Source of the DNA: Winogradskyella sp.
GTDB lineage: Bacteria > Fidelibacterota > Marinisomatia > Marinisomatales > AB-629-J13
NCBI GenBank assembly: GCA_964230865.1
Contig: CAXRJK010000024.1
Location: 3,246-67,245 of the forward strand
Direction: 5' to 3'
DNA length: 64,000 nt
Shown: piece by piece, positions 2-8,421 of the stretch
How the letters are laid out: the number at the start of each line of letters is the position of its first letter
Numbering within the stretch: the stretch's first letter is position 1
Program-made: the position numbers and the translations under genes
The notes under the pieces: generated by a model
Seen by the model: the letters and a program-made list of their open reading frames with translations, nothing else
Database searches by the model: none
What the model was told of the DNA's origin: nothing

Positions 2-1879
2 TTTACAATCGGCTGTGGAGGAGGCGAAAAGAAATCCAAAACAAGTTCTGTTTCAAAGACGGAGGTTATAGATAAGGATACATCTAAACCAGCAAATGAA
101 GGGGGATACGGATTTGAAAAATATGCAGAAAAACTGGGGTTTCAAACCTACGTGTGGTCAGAGGAAAAGGATGGAACATTTTTTGGTGACCCAACCGCCC
201 AAAAAGGAGGTAAAATACACTATATTCACTCCTTATTCCCAAGGACGCTGCGTGTGATTGGCCAAAACTCCAGTCAAGTTATAAATTCAAGAACAATCAG
301 CGCTCTATGTTATGAATCCTTGCTAGGACAACACCCTTCCACATTGGAGTTCGTACCAGGTTTGGCGTCTCACTGGTCTATTTCTGAAGATAAAATGACG
401 TTTAAGTACCGGATTAATCCTGACGCAAGATGGTCCGATGGGATACCTGTGACTGCGGACGATATTGTTGCGACTTGGGATTTGCGTATGGATGAAACAA
501 TTCTGATGCCCAGTGAGCAATTAACATTTAGTAAATATGAACGACCTGTAGCTGAAAGTAAATATATTGTTTCTGTTAAGGCTATAGAAGTGAACTGGAG
601 AAATTTTCTTTACATTTCCACCATGGTCGTTCACCCAAATCATATACTGAAAGATCTGGACGGAACAGCTTTCCTCGAAGAGTATACATTTTCTTTAATA
701 CCTGGGACAGGTCCATACATCATTCCTGAAAATAAAATACGTAATCAGGAATCTTATACATTAATACGTAGAGATGATTACTGGGCAAAGGATGATCCAT
801 TTAACCGATTTAAATATAATTTTGATGAAATTAAGATATCTGTTGTAAAAGATAATGATGCCCTTCAATATGAAAAATTCAAAAAAGGGGAACAAGACAT
901 ATTTACTGTAAGCCGTGCCCGACGGTGGGTAGAAGAATCTGACTTTGAAGCTACACAAAAAGGATGGATAAAAAAACAGCGTGTTTTCTCAGAGCGCCCA
1001 GCGGGCACATCGGGATATTTCTTTAATATGCGGAAGTGGCCTTTTGATGATAAACGTGTTCGATATGCGTTCTGCTATCTCTATAATAGGGAGAAAATGA
1101 ACAAAGAGATGTATTACAGTGAGTATGATATGATGAACTCAATGTTTGCAGGGTCCACATACGAAAATCCAAATAATAACCAATTTCATCACAGCCCGGA
1201 AAGAGCTGTTGAATTACTTAAAGAAGCTGGATATACTACAAGAAATGATGATGGCTGGCTTGTACATGAACCTACAGGCAAAGTATTATCATTTCAGTTG
1301 GATCTTCCAAAAACTTATGAATATATGGCGACACCGGTTCAACAAATGCTCAAAGATTATGGAATTGACATGCAAATTAAATTTGTGGATTACAACACCA
1401 TGATTAAAAATGTAAATGAACGAAACTTTACTATTGCTATGTTGGCATACAGTGGCCTTATTTATCCGAACCCTGAAACATCTTACCGCTCAACCCTCGC
1501 AGATAAAAATGATAACAACAATGTTTGGGGTTTCAAAAGTGAACGTGTTGATGAATTATTAGATGAATATGATATTTGTTTTGACCAAAAAAGACGGGTA
1601 GAAATTATTCAAGAGATTGATGGAATTGTGAGCGATGTCCACCCGACAGCATACAGTATCGCAAGGAACTACATTCGAACTATGTGGTGGGATAAATTTG
1701 GATATCCAGAGTGGAAACTATCGCGCTATGTTGGTGAATATTGGGATATTTTTTACTACTGGTGGATTGACGAAGACAAAGTGACCAGACTAAATAACGC
1801 AAAAGAAAATGATAAACAATTGGAAATCTTACCACTGGATATGACCTACTGGCCAGAACATTTGAAAGCGAACCAATAA
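2..1879 (+). CDS. ABC transporter substrate-binding lipoprotein, family 5 (peptide/nickel, YejA/OppA-like); 5' end lies outside the window
   Basis: The frame is open from nt 2 (FTIGCGGGEKKSKTSS: lipobox-like IGC plus a Gly/Ser linker), so the track's GTG at 152 is internal. About 600 aa. First gene of an SBP-permease-permease-ATPase-ATPase array. Confidence 0.8.
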   Translation, partial: FTIGCGGGEKKSKTSSVSKTEVIDKDTSKPANEGGYGFEKYAEKLGFQTYVWSEEKDGTFFGDPTAQKGGKIHYIHSLFPRTLRVIGQNSSQVINSRTISALCYESLLGQHPSTLEFVPGLASHWSISEDKMTFKYRINPDARWSDGIPVTADDIVATWDLRMDETILMPSEQLTFSKYERPVAESKYIVSVKAIEVNWRNFLYISTMVVHPNHILKDLDGTAFLEEYTFSLIPGTGPYIIPENKIRNQESYTLIRRDDYWAKDDPFNRFKYNFDEIKISVVKDNDALQYEKFKKGEQDIFTVSRARRWVEESDFEATQKGWIKKQRVFSERPAGTSGYFFNMRKWPFDDKRVRYAFCYLYNREKMNKEMYYSEYDMMNSMFAGSTYENPNNNQFHHSPERAVELLKEAGYTTRNDDGWLVHEPTGKVLSFQLDLPKTYEYMATPVQQMLKDYGIDMQIKFVDYNTMIKNVNERNFTIAMLAYSGLIYPNPETSYRSTLADKNDNNNVWGFKSERVDELLDEYDICFDQKRRVEIIQEIDGIVSDVHPTAYSIARNYIRTMWWDKFGYPEWKLSRYVGEYWDIFYYWWIDEDKVTRLNNAKENDKQLEILPLDMTYWPEHLKANQ

Positions 1880-1897: not shown

Positions 1898-3187
1898 ATG
1901 GCAACTTATTTTTTAAGACGACTCTTGTTAATGATTCCAACTTTTTTGGGATCGACCTTACTCGTATTCACTATACTTCAGTTGGCCCCAGGTGGTCCTT
2001 TAGAGCAGACCATATTGCAATTACAAATGGGAGGGCTCACAGGTGGTGGGGAAGGTGGCAGTGGATCAGCAGTGGGATTGGATGGAGGGAGCGTCCTACC
2101 AGAGTCTGCTTTAAAAGAATTGAAACGTTTTTATGGCTTCGATAAACCTATCTATCAAAGATATCTCATCTGGCTTGGGGTGTGGCCTAGGGAGATAAAA
2201 CATCGTGACTTTGAAGTTTTATCAACGTCCGCAGAGGTTGAGAAACGTGTGGGAAAGCGAGATGGTAGAATATGGAAAGTTGATATTAGGGTAGATGAAA
2301 ATAGTAAATTAATAGTCTATGAAAAAGATGGTACTAAGAGTGATATATGGGCCGCATCCATTGATAAGACTAAAGAAGATGGCACAAAAGAAGCTGTCAT
2401 TTTTCAAAGAGAATATTCAGGTATACTCACAGGTAATTTGGGAAAATCTTATACCTATCTAAAGCCAGTGACTGAGGTGATGAAACCAAGATTTCGTATT
2501 TCATTGTTTTTTGGATTGACAGGATTTTTTCTTTCTTATCTAATCTGTATCCCTCTGGGAATTCGTAAGGCTTTAAATCATGGGTCAGTTTTTGATTTTG
2601 GTTCTAGTGTTGCAATTTTTATTGCATATTCTATCCCAGGTTGGGCTTTAGGTGGTGTTCTTTTAGTATTGTTTGGAGGTGGAAGTTTTTGGGATATTTT
2701 CCCGCTTGGTGGATTCAGAAGTCCCATTGAAGTATGGGAAACATTAACTCCATTTGAAAAATTTATTGACCAGGTTCACCACATGGTTCTCCCAGTTATC
2801 GCATGGTCTATAAGTGGTTTCGCAACCTTAACTATTCTTATGAAAAACAGTTTGCTAGAGAATTTGAGCCAAGATTATATCCGAACCGCATTTGCAAAAG
2901 GATTACAAGAGAAGCGTGTTGTTTGGATTCATGCCATGAGAAATAGTGTAATTCCCATTGCCTCAGGGATTGGTCATATTCTTGGTGTGGTAATCGCTGG
3001 ATCTTATTTTATCGAGCGAGTTTTTAACATTGATGGCTTCGGGAGGTTAGCCTATGAGGCCATTTTATCTCGGGATTACCCAATTACCTTAGGATTTTTA
3101 GTTGTGGTAGTATTAATTAGATTAATCGGAAATATAATTAGCGACCTTGCTTTGGCAACCGTTGACCCAAGGATTCGTTTTAAATGA
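1898..3187 (+). CDS. ABC transporter permease, YejB/OppB-like, with an enlarged first periplasmic loop
   Basis: LAPGGPLEQ, RFYGFDKPIYQRY, IPLGIRKALNHGSVFD, SRDYPITLG and the C-terminal VDPRIRFK resemble YejB-type permeases. ATGA overlap with the next gene. Confidence 0.85.
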   Translation: MATYFLRRLLLMIPTFLGSTLLVFTILQLAPGGPLEQTILQLQMGGLTGGGEGGSGSAVGLDGGSVLPESALKELKRFYGFDKPIYQRYLIWLGVWPREIKHRDFEVLSTSAEVEKRVGKRDGRIWKVDIRVDENSKLIVYEKDGTKSDIWAASIDKTKEDGTKEAVIFQREYSGILTGNLGKSYTYLKPVTEVMKPRFRISLFFGLTGFFLSYLICIPLGIRKALNHGSVFDFGSSVAIFIAYSIPGWALGGVLLVLFGGGSFWDIFPLGGFRSPIEVWETLTPFEKFIDQVHHMVLPVIAWSISGFATLTILMKNSLLENLSQDYIRTAFAKGLQEKRVVWIHAMRNSVIPIASGIGHILGVVIAGSYFIERVFNIDGFGRLAYEAILSRDYPITLGFLVVVVLIRLIGNIISDLALATVDPRIRFK

Positions 3188-4245
3188 AGTTTCTAAAGAA
3201 ACAAGAAGATCAGCACATTTCTATTCTCCGAAAAAGGTGGTTGAAGTTTAAAACTTTAAAGAGAGGGTATTACTCTTTAATAACGCTGACAGTGTTGTAT
3301 GGCATTTCATTTTTCTTACCATTTCTTATTAACAACCGTGCATTATTGGTTGAATATGATGGTGAAATATATTTTCCTGTATTTAGTGGATATATCGCTG
3401 GAAAAACTTTTGGTCAGGACGTCCCCGGTGAAGCCCGATACCGTGAATTAAAAGAGCAGTTTAAAATGAAAAATAATGGAGACTGGGTTTTGATGCCCCC
3501 CTATCCTTATTCTCCATATGAAGATATTACGGTGGAGGGTAATAAAATGTATGAACCTCCTTCTACTAAACACTGGTTGGGAACTGATAATACGGGAAGA
3601 GATGTTTTCGCCCGATTATGCTATGCATTTAATATATCTATATCTTTTGCACTGATTTTGACCATTATCAACTACATTTTTGGTATTCTCATTGGAGGCT
3701 CTATGGGATATTTTGGTGGCAAATTTGATTTATTCTTCCAGAGGCTAATAGAAATATGGTCCAGCTTACCTATGCTCTTTGTCATCATCATTATCTCCTC
3801 AATTTTAAAACCATCCTTTTTACTCCTTGTTGGTATATATACAATGGTAAACTGGATAAGTATGACCTACCTTATGAGAGCAGAGTTCTACAGAGAAAAA
3901 GCGAAAGATTATGTTGCCGCAGCTTTAAGTATGGGTCAATCTAATTTCAAAGTTATGTTTAAACATATTTTCCCCAATGCACTGGTTCCGGTCATCACTT
4001 ACTTCCCATTTTCAATTGTCGCAGGAATTTCTGCTCTGGTAGGTTTAGACTATCTTGGTTTTGGGCTAGCTCCACCTACACCATCCTGGGGCCAAATGCT
4101 TGATGTTGGTTTACAAAATGTGACAAAATGGTGGATGGTATTTTCTCCGGTCTCTGCCCAGTTTTTGACTTTACTATCAATTGTATTTATTGGAGAGGGA
4201 GTTCGAGAAGCATTTGATCCTAAGGTCTATTCAAGGCTCCGATGA
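3184..4245 (+). CDS. ABC transporter permease, YejE/OppC-like
   Basis: HWLGTDNTGRDVFARL, IEIWSSLPMLFVIIII and the GEGVREAFDP tail. ATGA overlaps on both sides. Confidence 0.85.
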   Translation: MKFLKKQEDQHISILRKRWLKFKTLKRGYYSLITLTVLYGISFFLPFLINNRALLVEYDGEIYFPVFSGYIAGKTFGQDVPGEARYRELKEQFKMKNNGDWVLMPPYPYSPYEDITVEGNKMYEPPSTKHWLGTDNTGRDVFARLCYAFNISISFALILTIINYIFGILIGGSMGYFGGKFDLFFQRLIEIWSSLPMLFVIIIISSILKPSFLLLVGIYTMVNWISMTYLMRAEFYREKAKDYVAAALSMGQSNFKVMFKHIFPNALVPVITYFPFSIVAGISALVGLDYLGFGLAPPTPSWGQMLDVGLQNVTKWWMVFSPVSAQFLTLLSIVFIGEGVREAFDPKVYSRLR

Positions 4246-5717
4246 AAAACGGGAAACTACTAGAGATCAAAGGTTTGAAAACCCGATTCAAGATCGGGAA
4301 TCAATGGGCATCAGCCGTAAATGGAATAGATTTTGATATTTTCAAAGGAGAAACTTTAGGAATTGTTGGCGAATCTGGTTCAGGAAAATCTGTTTCAGTT
4401 TTATCACTTATTCAGCTGATTCCAAATCCACCTGGTGAAGTGAGCGAAGGTACAATAAAATTTAGGGATGAGATTATTTTTGATGGAAAAGATCTTGAAA
4501 AGATTAAAAAAATTCCAAATTTTAAATATTTTCCTAAATTAAAAGGTAAAAACCGGTCTTGGGTTACTCGATTGTTCTTTGCTAGTTGGATTGGGCTACA
4601 TTTACTATTACCGATTAAGGGAATAATCATATTCATTATCTCATTTTTAGCAGATGTTTTTGTAACTACTCATTTGTTTTTTAAATCTCCACAGAAGGAG
4701 GCATTTAAAAATTTTAGAGAAAAACTTTATAAAAAAATGAGAAATTATCGTGGGCGAGAAATAGCAATGATTTTTCAGGAACCAATGACTTCACTGAACC
4801 CAGTATTCACTGTTGGTATGCAAGTCACAGAAGCGATAAAACCAAAACGATTATTTGAATATATATTTGATAGCATTTTATCATCAGTCTCCACTCTTCT
4901 TGATATTCCTGTAATGTTGAGAATAAAAATATCTGTTATTTTTAGTTTAGTTACTATTATTTTTTCCCAATTGGTTGCAGGATGGAGTTTCTATGGGCTG
5001 GATATTTTCATCGCCTTACTTATTGGGATATCATTTCCTACAGTAATTGCCTATTTAATGATTGGAATTAGCAAGCTTATTTCAAAGGAATATAAAGAAA
5101 AACATGAAGAGCTATTTAATCTTGGAGCAGAACTTTTAAAAAGAGTTGGTATACCAGATGCGGAAAAAAGAATGAATGATTATCCCCATCAATTTTCGGG
5201 GGGAATGCGCCAAAGAGTGATGATCGCAATGGCTCTCGCGAAAAATCCATCTCTCCTGATTGCTGATGAACCCACAACTGCATTGGACGTTACCATTCAG
5301 GCACAAATACTTGAATTGATGTTAGAGCTAAAGGACCAAAATGAAGAGGCAGCTGTTATTTTAATTACACATGATTTAGCTGTAGTCGCGGAAACATGTG
5401 AGAGGGTGATAGTAATGTATGGTGGAATGATACAGGAGGTAGCGCCAGTAGAGATGTTATTTGAAAAACCACTTCATCCTTACACAAAAGGATTGCTCAA
5501 TTCAATTCCACATCCAGATGAACATAACCCTAAGGAAAAATTGGAAACAATTTCTGGAATGGTTCCAAATATCGTTGATATGCCATCTGGATGCAAATTT
5601 TGTACTAGATGCGATTGGGTAGAGGAACGGTGTAATACTGATGAACCTCCATTGAAGGAAATTGATCCAAATCATTTTGTTCGTTGTCATGTCGTTGCAG
5701 AGGGAGGATTAAGTTGA
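4242..5717 (+). CDS. ABC transporter ATP-binding protein (OppD / YejF N-half-like) with two hydrophobic insertions
   Basis: Walker [10 protein letters not shown]-loop IAMIFQEP, signature FSGGMRQR, Walker [18 protein letters not shown], and the oligopeptide C-terminal Cys motif. 491 aa instead of about 330. Confidence 0.85.
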
Positions 5718-6730
5718 GCGCTAAATCACTAGTAGATATTAGAAATTTATCAGTTAGTTTTCCGGTTTATGGTGGAATCCTTTCGAGAAAAGTTGCAGAA
5801 GTCAAGGCGGTAGATGATATTTCTTTCACTATTGGTAAAAGTGAGATTGTAGGATTGGTTGGAGAGTCAGGATGTGGAAAGACAACGGTCGGAAGAGCGC
5901 TGATCAATATTTTAAAATATGTAGCTCCGGATGTAGAAATTGGCGGTGAAATTATCTATCGCTTTGATGGTGAGGATATAGATTTCACCAAACTCTCTCC
6001 TAGGCAAATGAGAAAATATAGATCTCGAGTACAAATGATTTTTCAGGATCCCTATGCTTCTCTAAATCCTCGTATGACTGTCTCACAGATTATAGAAGAG
6101 CCATTGAAAATACATACAGATTTATCTCTAAAAGAGAGGGAAGAAAATGTGCATTCTCTTTTGGGGAAAGTTGGACTAAGGGTAGACCACGCTGGAAGAT
6201 TTCCTCATGAATTTTCAGGAGGTCAGAGACAGCGCGTTGGAATAGCCCGTGCTCTGGCGACCAATCCAGATTTGATTATCTGTGATGAACCAGTTTCTGC
6301 ATTGGATGTATCAATTCAAGCACAGGTAATTAACCTGATGATGGATATTCAGAAAGAATTTGACGTGTCCTTTTTATTTATAGCTCATGATTTATCTGTT
6401 GTGGAACATATTTCAGATAAGATTGCTGTCATGTATTTAGGTAATCTGGTAGAGTTTGGCGAAGCAGGTCAAATCTATCACCATCCCAGACATCCTTACA
6501 GTCGAGCTCTTCTTTCAGCTGTCCCTGTTCCTGATCCAAAGCAAAAAGAAAGAGAACGAATCGTTTTGAAAGGTGATGTTCCAACACCTATGAATAAGCC
6601 TTCAGGCTGTAGTTTTAGAACTAGATGTCCCTTGGCTGAACAAGCCTGTGCCGAAAAAATACCCAAATTAGAAACACATGCCTCAGACCATTGGGTAGCA
6701 TGTCCTATTGTAAAAAATGAAGGAGTATAA
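5714..6730 (+). CDS. ABC transporter ATP-binding protein (OppF / YejF C-half-like)
   Basis: GESGCGKTT, FSGGQRQRVGIARAL, LIICDEPVSALD. Start moved to TTG 5714 (TTGA overlap with the upstream stop, AGGGAGGA at 5701-5708), because the track start 5684 lies inside the upstream gene. Confidence 0.85.
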   Translation: MSAKSLVDIRNLSVSFPVYGGILSRKVAEVKAVDDISFTIGKSEIVGLVGESGCGKTTVGRALINILKYVAPDVEIGGEIIYRFDGEDIDFTKLSPRQMRKYRSRVQMIFQDPYASLNPRMTVSQIIEEPLKIHTDLSLKEREENVHSLLGKVGLRVDHAGRFPHEFSGGQRQRVGIARALATNPDLIICDEPVSALDVSIQAQVINLMMDIQKEFDVSFLFIAHDLSVVEHISDKIAVMYLGNLVEFGEAGQIYHHPRHPYSRALLSAVPVPDPKQKERERIVLKGDVPTPMNKPSGCSFRTRCPLAEQACAEKIPKLETHASDHWVACPIVKNEGV

Positions 6731-8421
6731 TGAAATATAGCGAATTTCCGTATAAAAGAATTTCAATTGAAACTCAAAAAGAATTCATGCAGAATTGGTT
6801 AAAGAGATTCAATGATGCAGAATCAGCTGAGGAACAAATTAAAGTATTGGAAGAAGTAAATACATCCATCAGTGAATACTCATCTTATGGTGCGATTGCA
6901 AGTTTAAACTTTAATCGCAATATACATGATGAAGAGGCCAAAGCAGAAAAAGAATATTATGATTCTATTGGACCTGATATACAAGAAATTTATAATGATT
7001 TAGATAAAGCAATAGACTCCTCAAAATTCAAATCAGAGCTCAGAGATAAATGGGGAAATACTTTTTTAAAGAGTATTGAAATGGATTTAAAAACTTTTCA
7101 TCCAAATATAATGGACATGATGAGAGAAGAAACAGACCTCAGAAATGATTACACAAAATTAATTGGGGGAGCACAAATAGAATTTGATGGAGAAACCTAC
7201 AATCTAGCCGGATTGGGTCCGTTTCACAAAGATAAAAGTCGCGCTATACGGAAACGATCTTATAAAGCCCGATTTGACTGGTTTGCTGAGAATTCAGATA
7301 AGTTTGATAACCTCTATGATAAATTGGTAAAACTTCGACATAAAATTGCTACTACACTTGGCTATAAAAATTTTATAGAGTTAGGTTATCTTCGGATGAG
7401 TCGTTCAGATTACGGGCCTGAAGAAGTAGCGAACTTCCGAAAACAAATTGTTGATTATGTTGTACCAATTGCTGACAAACTTTCGGAACAGAAAAAGAAA
7501 ATACTCGGATTAGAACATCTATATTTTTATGATGGGATAAATTTTATAGAAGGAGATCCAAAGCCGAAGGGTACACCAGATGAGTTGGTCAAAGGTGCCC
7601 AAAAAATGTACCATGATTTATCACCTGAGACAGGTGAGTTCTTTGATATAATGGTGAACGAGCAATTGATGGATTTAGTAAACCGTGATGGCAAAATGGC
7701 GGGGGGATTTTGTACAGCATTTCCAACATATGAGCGTCCTTATATTTTTTCCAATTTCAATGGAACTGACCATGATATAACAGTATTAACTCATGAAGCA
7801 GGGCACGCTTTTCAATGTTACTCTAGTCGTAAACAGCCACTAGTCAGTTATTTATGGCCAACAATGGAATCAGCAGAAATTCATTCTATGAGTATGGAAT
7901 TTTTTACATGGCCATGGATGGATACATTTTTCAAGGAAGAAACTGAACGATTCAAATATAAGCATATTGCGGGAAGTCTATCTTTTCTGCCTTATGGAGC
8001 ATGTGTAGATCACTTTCAGCATTGGGTATATGAGTACCCTGAAGCAACGCCAAAAGATAGGAAACAGAAATGGCTAGAATTAGAATCTATCTATTTACCA
8101 GACCGAGATTACGGTGACTTGGAATTTCCAAAGACTGGAGGTATATGGCAAGGTCAGCTTCATATTTATCAAATGCCGTTTTATTATATAGATTATACAT
8201 TGGCTCAAACCTGTGCATTTCAGTTCTGGATCAAAAACGAAGAAAACCATAAAAAAGCTTGGGAAGATTACTATCGCTTGTGCAAAGCAGGGGGCAGTTT
8301 ACCGTTTACAGAGTTGGTTAAGCTGGCAAAATTGAAATCTCCTTTTGAAGATGGATGTCTAAAGTCTGTTGTCAATAAAGTGTCAAACTGGCTGGATAAT
8401 ATTGACCCGTTGTCATTATAA
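6730..8421 (+). CDS. pepF: M3B oligoendopeptidase F
   Basis: HEAGHAF zinc motif (HEXXH). 563 aa, no signal peptide. TAATG 1-nt overlap with the ATPase gene. Confidence 0.8.
   Translation: MKYSEFPYKRISIETQKEFMQNWLKRFNDAESAEEQIKVLEEVNTSISEYSSYGAIASLNFNRNIHDEEAKAEKEYYDSIGPDIQEIYNDLDKAIDSSKFKSELRDKWGNTFLKSIEMDLKTFHPNIMDMMREETDLRNDYTKLIGGAQIEFDGETYNLAGLGPFHKDKSRAIRKRSYKARFDWFAENSDKFDNLYDKLVKLRHKIATTLGYKNFIELGYLRMSRSDYGPEEVANFRKQIVDYVVPIADKLSEQKKKILGLEHLYFYDGINFIEGDPKPKGTPDELVKGAQKMYHDLSPETGEFFDIMVNEQLMDLVNRDGKMAGGFCTAFPTYERPYIFSNFNGTDHDITVLTHEAGHAFQCYSSRKQPLVSYLWPTMESAEIHSMSMEFFTWPWMDTFFKEETERFKYKHIAGSLSFLPYGACVDHFQHWVYEYPEATPKDRKQKWLELESIYLPDRDYGDLEFPKTGGIWQGQLHIYQMPFYYIDYTLAQTCAFQFWIKNEENHKKAWEDYYRLCKAGGSLPFTELVKLAKLKSPFEDGCLKSVVNKVSNWLDNIDPLSL

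Follow-up and report, generated by a model that had tools for sequence, protein, structure and literature searches.

In the textbook picture of an ATP-binding cassette (ABC) transporter, the nucleotide-binding domain (NBD) is a soluble engine and contact with the membrane is left to the permeases. The Q-loop of the NBD reports the nucleotide state to the coupling helices of the permeases. The OppD and DppD subunits of Escherichia coli and Mycobacterium tuberculosis (Mtb), solved by cryo-electron microscopy (8z21, 8z1v-8z1z, 8j5q-t, 8wd9-b), are soluble and either 323-336 aa long or fused double NBDs. Here we describe an OppD/DppD-type ABC ATPase of 491 aa in which the NBD carries two inserts, of 80 + 94 residues where the solved subunits have 5 + 13. 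The gene (4242..5717, + strand) lies in a 64,000-nt stretch of contig CAXRJK010000024.1, referred to as the window, and its product is the OppD-type ATPase of a five-part family-5 peptide importer in a bacterium of the phylum Fidelibacterota (Marinimicrobia/SAR406). In the list of open reading frames (ORFs) the frame is intact, with both inserts inside. Each insert is predicted to contain a hairpin of two apolar helices, and we consider it moderately probable that both hairpins are fully inserted in the membrane, with both termini on the cytoplasmic side (N-in/C-in), and play a peripheral role as anchor or modulator.

Results

Two inserts interrupt the NBD of an OppD-type ATPase

Proteins from the ORF list of the window were scored against Pfam and NCBIfam profiles. 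The ATPase was searched with phmmer against all PDB chains, and a joint alignment with insert-less relatives was used to delimit the inserts. The NBD motifs occur in canonical order (Walker A G43-S50, Q-loop I174-P181, signature F318-R325, Walker B L338-E343, H-loop I375-L379) and all of them are invariant in the alignment of the insert-bearing family. The Pfam model ABC_tran (PF00005) matched with 85.4 bits (threshold 25), the match being split in two by the second insert, and oligo_HPY (PF08352) matched aa 399-464 with 69.4 bits (threshold 27.1). In the C-terminal region Cys451, 457, 464 and 482 are invariant across the family alignment and C454 is nearly so; the equivalent cysteines of Mtb OppD reportedly bind an Fe-S (iron-sulfur) cluster. 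By sequence, every defining feature tested places the protein among the Opp/Dpp-family ATPases. Neither E. coli DppD nor E. coli OppD counts as its equivalog: the NCBIfam scores were 314.8 against a cut-off of 541 (NF008246) and 306.6 against 575 (NF007010). The N-terminus of the ATPase scored best against YejF, with 241.4 for that model at a cut-off of 834. Since all scores are below the curated cut-offs and the two ATPases of the system are unfused, the system is not YejABEF.

Alignments to the solved OppD/DppD chains (Mtb Rv1281c, Mtb DppD, E. coli DppD and OppD) fall into three pieces, covering query residues 5-85, 164-200 and 295-484, and leave two blocks unaligned. In insert-less relatives aa 86-165 correspond to 5 residues ('LSYDE') and aa 201-294 to 13 residues (KHEGLSWDEANER), so that the net insertions are ~75 and ~81 aa, respectively. 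An earlier note on this DNA, made from the letters alone, had described a 491-aa ATPase with the NBD motifs at the residues listed above and two extra blocks on either side of the Q-loop, between 4503 and 5111 (aa 88-290), each with two apolar stretches joined by a short turn; both blocks were said to be missing from the partner ATPase (5714-6730). The ORF list and the alignments bear out the motifs, the blocks and their absence from the partner. The limits of the blocks were refined to those given here, and the apolar stretches and turns reappear as predicted helices and hydropathy peaks, the latter present, depending on the segment, in 66-98% of 120 family members. The hand counts of G+C in that note (12/60 for 4501-4560 and 29/60 for 5221-5280) were exact.

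No Pfam domain was found in the inserts even at an E value of 10, and the NCBIfam search of the inserts gave a single sub-threshold match (E 0.0077, 16 bits against a cut-off of 275). With hhalign, the two inserts were not recognised as duplicates of each other (probability 0.6%) or as derived from permease helices (probabilities 0.2-18%, none of them significant), and both origins were rejected.

The inserts are conserved in length and were gained once

The distribution of the inserts was followed in a search space of 5.8 billion proteins, with NCBI, ENA, JGI and Logan sources among the matches. More than 120 clusters from four data sources share both inserts at 59-74% identity, and all are 483-494 aa long. 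The clusters are labelled Marinimicrobia, Neomarinimicrobiota or FCB group, names which NCBI places in the phylum Fidelibacterota. A six-frame search of 201 sampled Fidelibacterota genomes found the two-insert form in 44 of them, spread over 12 families and always as one open frame; these frames are nearly all 495-515 aa, the two exceptions being a frame of 565 aa and a truncated one of 426 aa. The window's own genome bin (1.56 Mb) has one two-insert copy. Many genomes of the phylum hold an operon with the insert-bearing ATPase plus an ordinary Opp-type ATPase, and a motif scan of genome contigs yielded at least three Fidelibacterota loci. In 120 aligned proteins the insert lengths of 80 + 94 aa are kept with essentially no gaps, at identities of 0.43 and 0.38 compared with 0.80-0.85 in the core. 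The inserts are real and under selection.

When 1.84 billion cluster representatives were searched with a profile, the whole family came back as a single entry (P0121), and no other lineage showed both inserts. The remaining matches were a singleton with a hairpin at the second site only (P0183) and otherwise ordinary or fused ATPases. Alignment and a survey of lineages, checks proposed with the first description of the blocks, delimited the blocks and placed both inserts together only in Fidelibacterota among the sets searched. When a maximum-likelihood tree was computed from the core columns only, the ATPases with inserts all came out as a single clade (support 100/99). The inserts were therefore gained once, in the ancestor of one clade within the phylum.

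Local G+C is ~10 points lower across the inserts, a dip that would fit an artefact such as a mis-assembly, a chimera, a frameshifted pseudogene or the insertion of a mobile element or intein. The dip lies mainly in codon positions 1 and 2, with G+C at position 1 (GC1) of 0.31-0.36 in the blocks against 0.48-0.56; the contrast at position 3 (GC3) is smaller, 0.21-0.22 in the blocks against 0.25-0.31. It is the Ile/Phe/Leu/Lys-rich composition of the blocks, and foreign DNA was ruled out as its source because the dip is in codon positions 1 and 2 rather than 3. GC3 is nearly unchanged across the blocks, they have no Pfam or NCBIfam match to intein or transposase models and no opposite-strand ORF of at least 80 aa, and the same architecture recurs in the clusters and the 44 genomes described above, always in one open frame. 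Mis-assembly or a chimera is ruled out by this conservation across assemblies, and an artefact of any of these kinds is scarcely credible.

Several proteins seen in the survey deserve separate mention. Two OppD entries of 466 and 494 aa (P0147, P0223) contain exact internal duplications of ~150-200 residues, which are probably assembly or gene-call artefacts and not inserts; because of them, length alone is unsafe as a screen for insert-bearing forms. The closest insert-less relatives outside the phylum (P0188, P0272-P0274, P0280, P0294, P0301, P0328), one of which is labelled Planctomycetota, have a K/R/Q-rich N-terminal extension of ~85-125 aa before the NBD. The singleton P0183 (L110 982-2298) is a metagenomic OppD with a Planctomycetota-like core; its apolar helical hairpin, at the second site only, lies in a segment exactly as long as the second insert (94 residues). 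Homology of this segment to the second insert was not upheld, its hhalign score of 12.4 lying within the shuffled range of 7.5-16.1; the P0183 hairpin may reflect either convergence or ancient homology.

Each insert is predicted to hold an apolar helical hairpin

The structure of the ATPase was modelled with AlphaFold2 (AF2) using a 120-sequence alignment (mean pLDDT, the per-residue confidence score, 81; pTM, the overall score, 0.72). Hydropathy was expressed as the Kyte-Doolittle (KD) mean over 19 residues (KD19, threshold 1.6) and amphipathicity as the hydrophobic moment (muH). In the model both inserts are all-helical, mostly with pLDDT of 85-93. Insert 1 is predicted to form helices 102-122, 128-147 and 150-172, and insert 2 helices 204-219, 224-245, 252-279 and 282-301. 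In hairpin 1, R105 is invariant near the putative cytoplasmic start of the first helix, in which FF112-113 and W116 are nearly invariant. In hairpin 2, R227 is nearly invariant at the start of the first helix, which has an FSQLxxGW motif at its end. Foldseek comparison of the model with the PDB gave matches on the NBD cores only (E. coli OppD 8z21_C, E. coli DppD 8z1v_C, Mtb OppD 8j5q_D), with a TM-score normalised to the query of at most 0.58. Among the PDB matches from phmmer and Foldseek no solved chain covers the two additions.

Across the family the four apolar helices have a mean KD of 0.7-2.0, a charged fraction of 0.04-0.15 and muH of 0.09-0.19, and their polar fraction stays at 0.09-0.23 despite a column entropy of 1.8-2.1 bits. 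The three stalk helices have a charged fraction of 0.26-0.41, and in two of them muH is 0.30-0.42. Hydrophobicity kept despite such sequence turnover would be as expected for lipid-facing helices. The KD19 peaks of the window protein reach 2.1-2.3, the transmembrane (TM) helices of the permeases of its own operon being at 1.8-2.5; OppF has no peak above 1.5. At least four segments above 1.6 are present in 97 of 121 family members, and among other OppD-family proteins (n=267) 225 have no such segment and 38 have one marginal segment. The Hessa central-position scale, summed over aa 255-273 of the window protein, gives -0.47 kcal/mol. Net charges of the flanks are +2.4, +3.3 (hairpin 1 C-flank), +3.4 (hairpin 2 N-flank) and -0.5 (hairpin 2 C-flank). 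Three of the four flanks are thus basic and the turns are almost without K or R, a positive-inside pattern. Apolar, non-amphipathic helices as long as TM helices, short turns poor in K and R, basic flanks, and a fixed length and retained hydrophobicity under fast turnover together form, at the level of sequence, a signature of hairpin insertion with both ends in the cytoplasm.

The same model could be taken to describe a cytosolic hydrophobic domain, in which seven extra helices sit atop the NBD and serve in dimerisation, in binding of a hydrophobic ligand or lipid, or in docking of a regulator. The predicted addition is compact and confident as well as all-helical. Soluble polar inserts at the same two sites in haloarchaea and Thermoplasmatota show that cytosolic decorations are tolerated there, and Mollicutes family models, seen as models and not as sequences, have extra positions at the first site. 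We nevertheless find such a domain unlikely. Unlike the stalk and core helices, the four helices have no polar face, as their low muH and charged fractions indicate, and their charge pattern obeys the positive-inside rule. In the cytosol, some 80 apolar residues left exposed would probably lead to aggregation, and fast turnover with hydrophobicity retained would be unlike a packed soluble core.

Orthologous permeases work with an ATPase lacking the inserts

In 24 fetched loci of the phylum, sorted into three operon types, the importers could be compared with and without the inserts. Operons of type A, to which the window's belongs, have the insert-bearing ATPase. Those of type C are paralogous, with a permease permC 54-60% identical to that of the window and an ATPase without inserts. 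The four type-B operons (L014 5995-7856, L090, L091, L092) have type-A-like permeases, permC being 67-86% and permB 63-77% identical, together with an insert-less OppD of 334 aa and a shortened OppF of 293-311 aa, in which the Cys-rich C-terminal part is missing. In the core-column tree the type-B ATPases group with those of type C (support 100/97), so that the D/F pair was swapped and not trimmed in place. Loss of the inserts in situ was accordingly rejected for type B, as its ATPases cluster with the paralogous operon type.

Co-variation was examined at positions at least 90% conserved in type A that differ in both type-B lineages. In these two independent swap lineages no permC position changes in step with the presence of the hairpins, and only 3 permB positions do, scattered along the protein. 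The permeases of the window appear complete. The YejE-like permease aligns over positions 9-338 of 341 of the NCBIfam microcin C permease model, and hydrophobic peaks above 1.5 number six in the YejB-like and five in the YejE-like permease. Because orthologous permeases pair with an insert-less ATPase with no compensating change in permC, and because both permeases are full length relative to the YejB/YejE models, the hairpins would lie at the periphery, outside the transport path.

The earlier note had suggested that the hairpins pack beside the permeases, and specific contacts of this kind are not borne out by the four insert-less operons, with 0 permC and 3 permB positions changing together with the inserts. 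A more intimate arrangement, in which the hairpins are functional parts of the membrane domain that intercalate between permease helices and act in gating or line the substrate path, was also considered. That both inserts flank the Q-loop, that their lengths are strictly fixed across the phylum and that R105, S149, W248, G262, FSQL and P266 are conserved would all agree with a gating role. Orthologous permeases, though, do without hairpins in four operons of two lineages and show no compensating changes, no permease helix is apparently missing, and the inserts are the fastest-evolving part of the protein. We regard participation in gating as very improbable.

Proposed arrangement of the hairpins

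In the arrangement we favour, two unrelated all-helical modules would have been added to the loops on either side of the Q-loop. Each module would consist of charged or amphipathic stalk helices bearing a hairpin of two apolar helices of ~20-28 residues, with an uncharged turn of 5-6 residues. Both hairpins would enter the cytoplasmic membrane with both ends cytoplasmic, making the ATPase a membrane-anchored subunit with four membrane helices. Helices 150-172, 204-219 and 282-301 appear to have the length needed for stalks that connect the NBD core with the bilayer. The place of the hairpins would be the lipid-exposed rim of the permease bundle, as an anchor, an assembly aid or a stabiliser, perhaps also as a modulator. 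Hairpin 1 would be carried by the RecA-like core and hairpin 2 by the helical subdomain, with the Q-loop between them. As ATP drives the rotation of RecA-like core and helical subdomain against each other, the hairpins would shift relative to each other in the bilayer, a movement through which the kinetics of the ATPase could become coupled to the membrane state. Such coupling of the bilayer to the ATP cycle is speculative. The strongest form of the proposal, that this OppD is a polytopic membrane protein whose NBD is interrupted twice by TM hairpins and whose rotation is mechanically coupled to the bilayer, we consider doubtful.

Several points weigh against full insertion. The first helix of each hairpin is only marginally hydrophobic, with a mean family KD of 0.68 (aa 102-122) and 1.20 (aa 224-245), and exceeds a KD19 of 1.6 in only about two thirds of the members. 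Three of the window protein's four segments have positive Hessa sums (+1.5 to +3.7 kcal/mol), and the C-flank of hairpin 2, with its net charge of -0.5, is not positive. Only two independent swap lineages underlie the lack of co-variation in the permeases. Two interruptions of a catalytic domain by membrane hairpins would also pose a problem of folding and biogenesis for which we know of no precedent.

The marginal first helices and the positive Hessa sums would be easier to accommodate if the hairpins were monotopic, that is, re-entrant or interfacial elements that dip into the cytoplasmic leaflet without crossing the membrane and tether the ATPase to it. The turns consist of very few residues, with much Pro and Gly among them (L-P-I-x-G), no periplasmic loop would have to be translocated, and the gate helix of Wzt offers an example of an NBD element at the water-lipid interface. 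We nevertheless rate a monotopic hairpin as rather unlikely: the apolar stretches are ~18-23 residues each, a bilayer-spanning length, their muH of 0.09-0.19 is not that of amphipathic surface helices, and the invariant Trp in the second turn fits an interface on the far side of the membrane.

The importer operon

The importer genes are translationally coupled as one operon, in the order substrate-binding protein (SBP), two permeases, OppD and OppF, followed by an M3 peptidase (Table 1). The genes for the YejE-like permease and the ATPase are joined by an ATGA overlap, and that of the M3 oligoendopeptidase is linked to the importer by a TAATG stop/start overlap; a 73% identical copy of the latter stands downstream in the type-B locus L091. 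This linkage suggests that the imported oligopeptides are cleaved by a co-expressed M3 oligoendopeptidase. The gene order SBP_bac_5, two BPD_transp_1 permeases, OppD and OppF recurs in 16 of the fetched loci.

The YejB-like permease (1898-3187) is ~65 aa longer than the YejB model and is matched by it in two stretches, which from the sequence would imply an extra segment before permease residue 181 (window 2183-2422). In Mtb DppB a large periplasmic P1 'scoop' loop enters the binding protein (PMC10954201), and a parallel between that loop and the extra segment is possible by analogy.

Table 1. Importer genes of the window and parts of the insert-bearing ATPase
Feature	Position	Strand	Evidence
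Family-5 substrate-binding protein	2..1879	+	Pfam SBP_bac_5, E 1.7e-58; 5' end cut by window edge
YejB-like permease, 429 aa	1898..3187	+	BPD_transp_1; NCBIfam YejB 259.7 bits, cut-off 445; six hydrophobic KD peaks
YejE-like permease, 353 aa	3184..4245	+	BPD_transp_1; NCBIfam microcin C permease model 276.9 bits, cut-off 439
N-terminal NBD part, aa 1-85: beta-subdomain strands, Walker A GESGSGKS (aa 43-50) and its helix	4242..4496	+	Aligns to residues 3-77 of solved OppD/DppD; family pairwise identity 0.80
Insert 1, aa 86-165, from last beta-subdomain strand to Q-loop strand	4497..4736	+	Unaligned in PDB search; 80 aa in 118/120; identity 0.43
Hairpin 1, first apolar helix (predicted), aa 102-122	4545..4607	+	AF2, pLDDT 89-93; KD19 >1.6 in 68% of family; muH 0.16
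Turn 1, aa 123-127, consensus L-P-I-x-G	4608..4622	+	K+R 0.06 per sequence over aa 121-129; P124, G127 conserved
Hairpin 1, second apolar helix (predicted), aa 128-147	4623..4682	+	AF2; KD19 >1.6 in 95% of family; charged fraction 0.04; muH 0.19
Charged return helix (predicted), aa 150-172, into Q-loop strand	4689..4757	+	AF2; 41% charged; S149, P150 invariant before/at its start
Q-loop block, aa 166-200, conserved island separating the inserts	4737..4841	+	Aligns to residues 82-117 of solved chains; family identity 0.78
Insert 2, aa 201-294, variable helical-subdomain part from Q-loop to signature	4842..5123	+	Unaligned in PDB search; 94 aa in 120/120; identity 0.38
Amphipathic stalk helix (predicted), aa 204-219	4851..4898	+	AF2; muH 0.30; 26% charged
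Hairpin 2, first apolar helix (predicted), aa 224-245	4911..4976	+	AF2; KD19 >1.6 in 66% of family; muH 0.12
Turn 2, aa 246-251, G-W-S/T-F	4977..4994	+	K+R 0.15 per sequence over aa 244-254; W248 invariant
Hairpin 2, second apolar helix (predicted), aa 252-279	4995..5078	+	AF2; KD19 >1.6 in 98% of family; G262 invariant, P266 conserved
C-terminal NBD core (signature FSGGMRQR, Walker B, H-loop) and oligo_HPY region	5124..5714	+	Aligns to residues 132-317 of solved chains; identity 0.85 over aa 295-395
OppF/DppF-type partner ATPase, 338 aa	5714..6730	+	NCBIfam OppF 399.4 bits, one continuous alignment; no inserts
M3-family oligoendopeptidase	6730..8421	+	TIGR02289 626 bits, cut-off 442; directly downstream of importer

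Discussion

Marinimicrobia (SAR406) are abundant in the dark ocean, and the inserts described here belong to an ecologically relevant uptake system, the peptide importers of this group. Four TM-like helices in an NBD would, if the reading of membrane insertion is true, amount to a new ABC architecture. If, in addition, the rotation were mechanically coupled to the bilayer, the import of peptides by these abundant bacteria of the deep ocean could be tuned by lipid composition, membrane tension or membrane potential, and the protein would be a natural test case for the folding of a soluble domain around co-translationally inserted membrane segments. The questions raised are how the domain folds around the hairpins and whether these anchor, stabilise or regulate; the type-B operons, with orthologous permeases and an insert-less ATPase, are a natural control. 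There is also an annotation hazard, as the ATPase will be taken for a membrane protein by TM predictors and is broken into pieces by domain models.

Literature searches on insertions or TM-like segments within the NBD of ABC proteins, and on Marinimicrobia peptide transporters, gave no description of hairpins of this kind. The solved E. coli and Mtb OppD/DppD subunits share with the window protein the NBD fold, the order of motifs and the C-terminal oligo_HPY region with its cysteines. They belong to the same transporter family, with the same operon logic, and are its best hits (E 1e-95 to 1e-70) and best fold matches (TM-score normalised to the target ~0.8), and differ from it in having short loops in place of the inserts. 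In the microcin C/peptide importer YejABEF, against whose YejB/YejE models the window permeases score best, all below the cut-offs, YejF is one fused double ATPase, whereas the window system has two separate ATPase genes. Neither site has extra positions in the YejF model, whose positions 83/84 and 120/137 are contiguous with the blocks that flank the inserts.

Insertions at one or both of these sites do occur elsewhere. In the Mollicutes OppD model (NF043079) the N-terminal block runs to position 72 and the Q-loop begins at 297 (~220 extra positions at the first site), and in the Mollicutes OppF model (NF043078) the corresponding positions are 73 and 395 (~320 extra). The Mollicutes OppD has no insert at the second site, and the comparison is one of family models only. 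The window ATPase scored 306.9 bits against NF043079 (cut-off 740), and insert 1 by itself gave no match to it. Two haloarchaeal-looking fused double ATPases (P0122, P0211) carry an acidic, Asp/Ala-rich insert of ~150 aa at the first site of the first NBD and have no KD19 window above 1.6. A Thermoplasmatota OppD of 454 aa (L012 3543-6203) has a small basic insert at the first site and, at the second, a Lys/Glu-rich insert of ~110 aa that looks helical and is polar by sequence reading. The OppF of the same locus, at 428 aa, is ~90 aa longer than that of the window, the extra part apparently lying in the C-terminal region. Both insertion sites are tolerant loops in other lineages, and the inserts there are polar where read. 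The earlier note knew of no described precedent, and it would have been refuted by variable regions of comparable length at these two sites in characterised OppD/YejF proteins. Length variability does occur in part, at the first site in the Mollicutes models and the haloarchaeal proteins and at the second in the Thermoplasmatota OppD. Hydrophobic hairpins are not among the inserts read there, and the structure and literature searches brought up no NBD with TM-like segments.

The second site lies in the part of the helical subdomain that varies between ABC proteins, the 'structurally diverse region' in CFTR usage, and the 'arm' of ABCF proteins is a helical hairpin in the helical subdomain that provides a new interaction surface. 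The regulatory insertion and structurally diverse region of CFTR and the ABCF arm are polar and cytosolic and serve in regulation or in contact with the ribosome; the hairpins described here are, by contrast, apolar and of TM length. For an NBD element that touches the membrane, the closest functional precedent by analogy would be the gate helix of Wzt. This extra helix grows out of an NBD loop between beta-strands 1 and 2, extends beside the membrane domain to the water-lipid interface on the cytosolic side and shifts during the ATP cycle, and in the O-antigen and teichoic-acid exporters Wzt/TarH this helix provides an electropositive pocket for the lipid-linked substrate (PMC6379404). The gate helix is a single, short, non-spanning helix of an exporter, whereas the inserts of the window ATPase belong to an importer and stand at different sites, one after the beta-subdomain and the other after the Q-loop.

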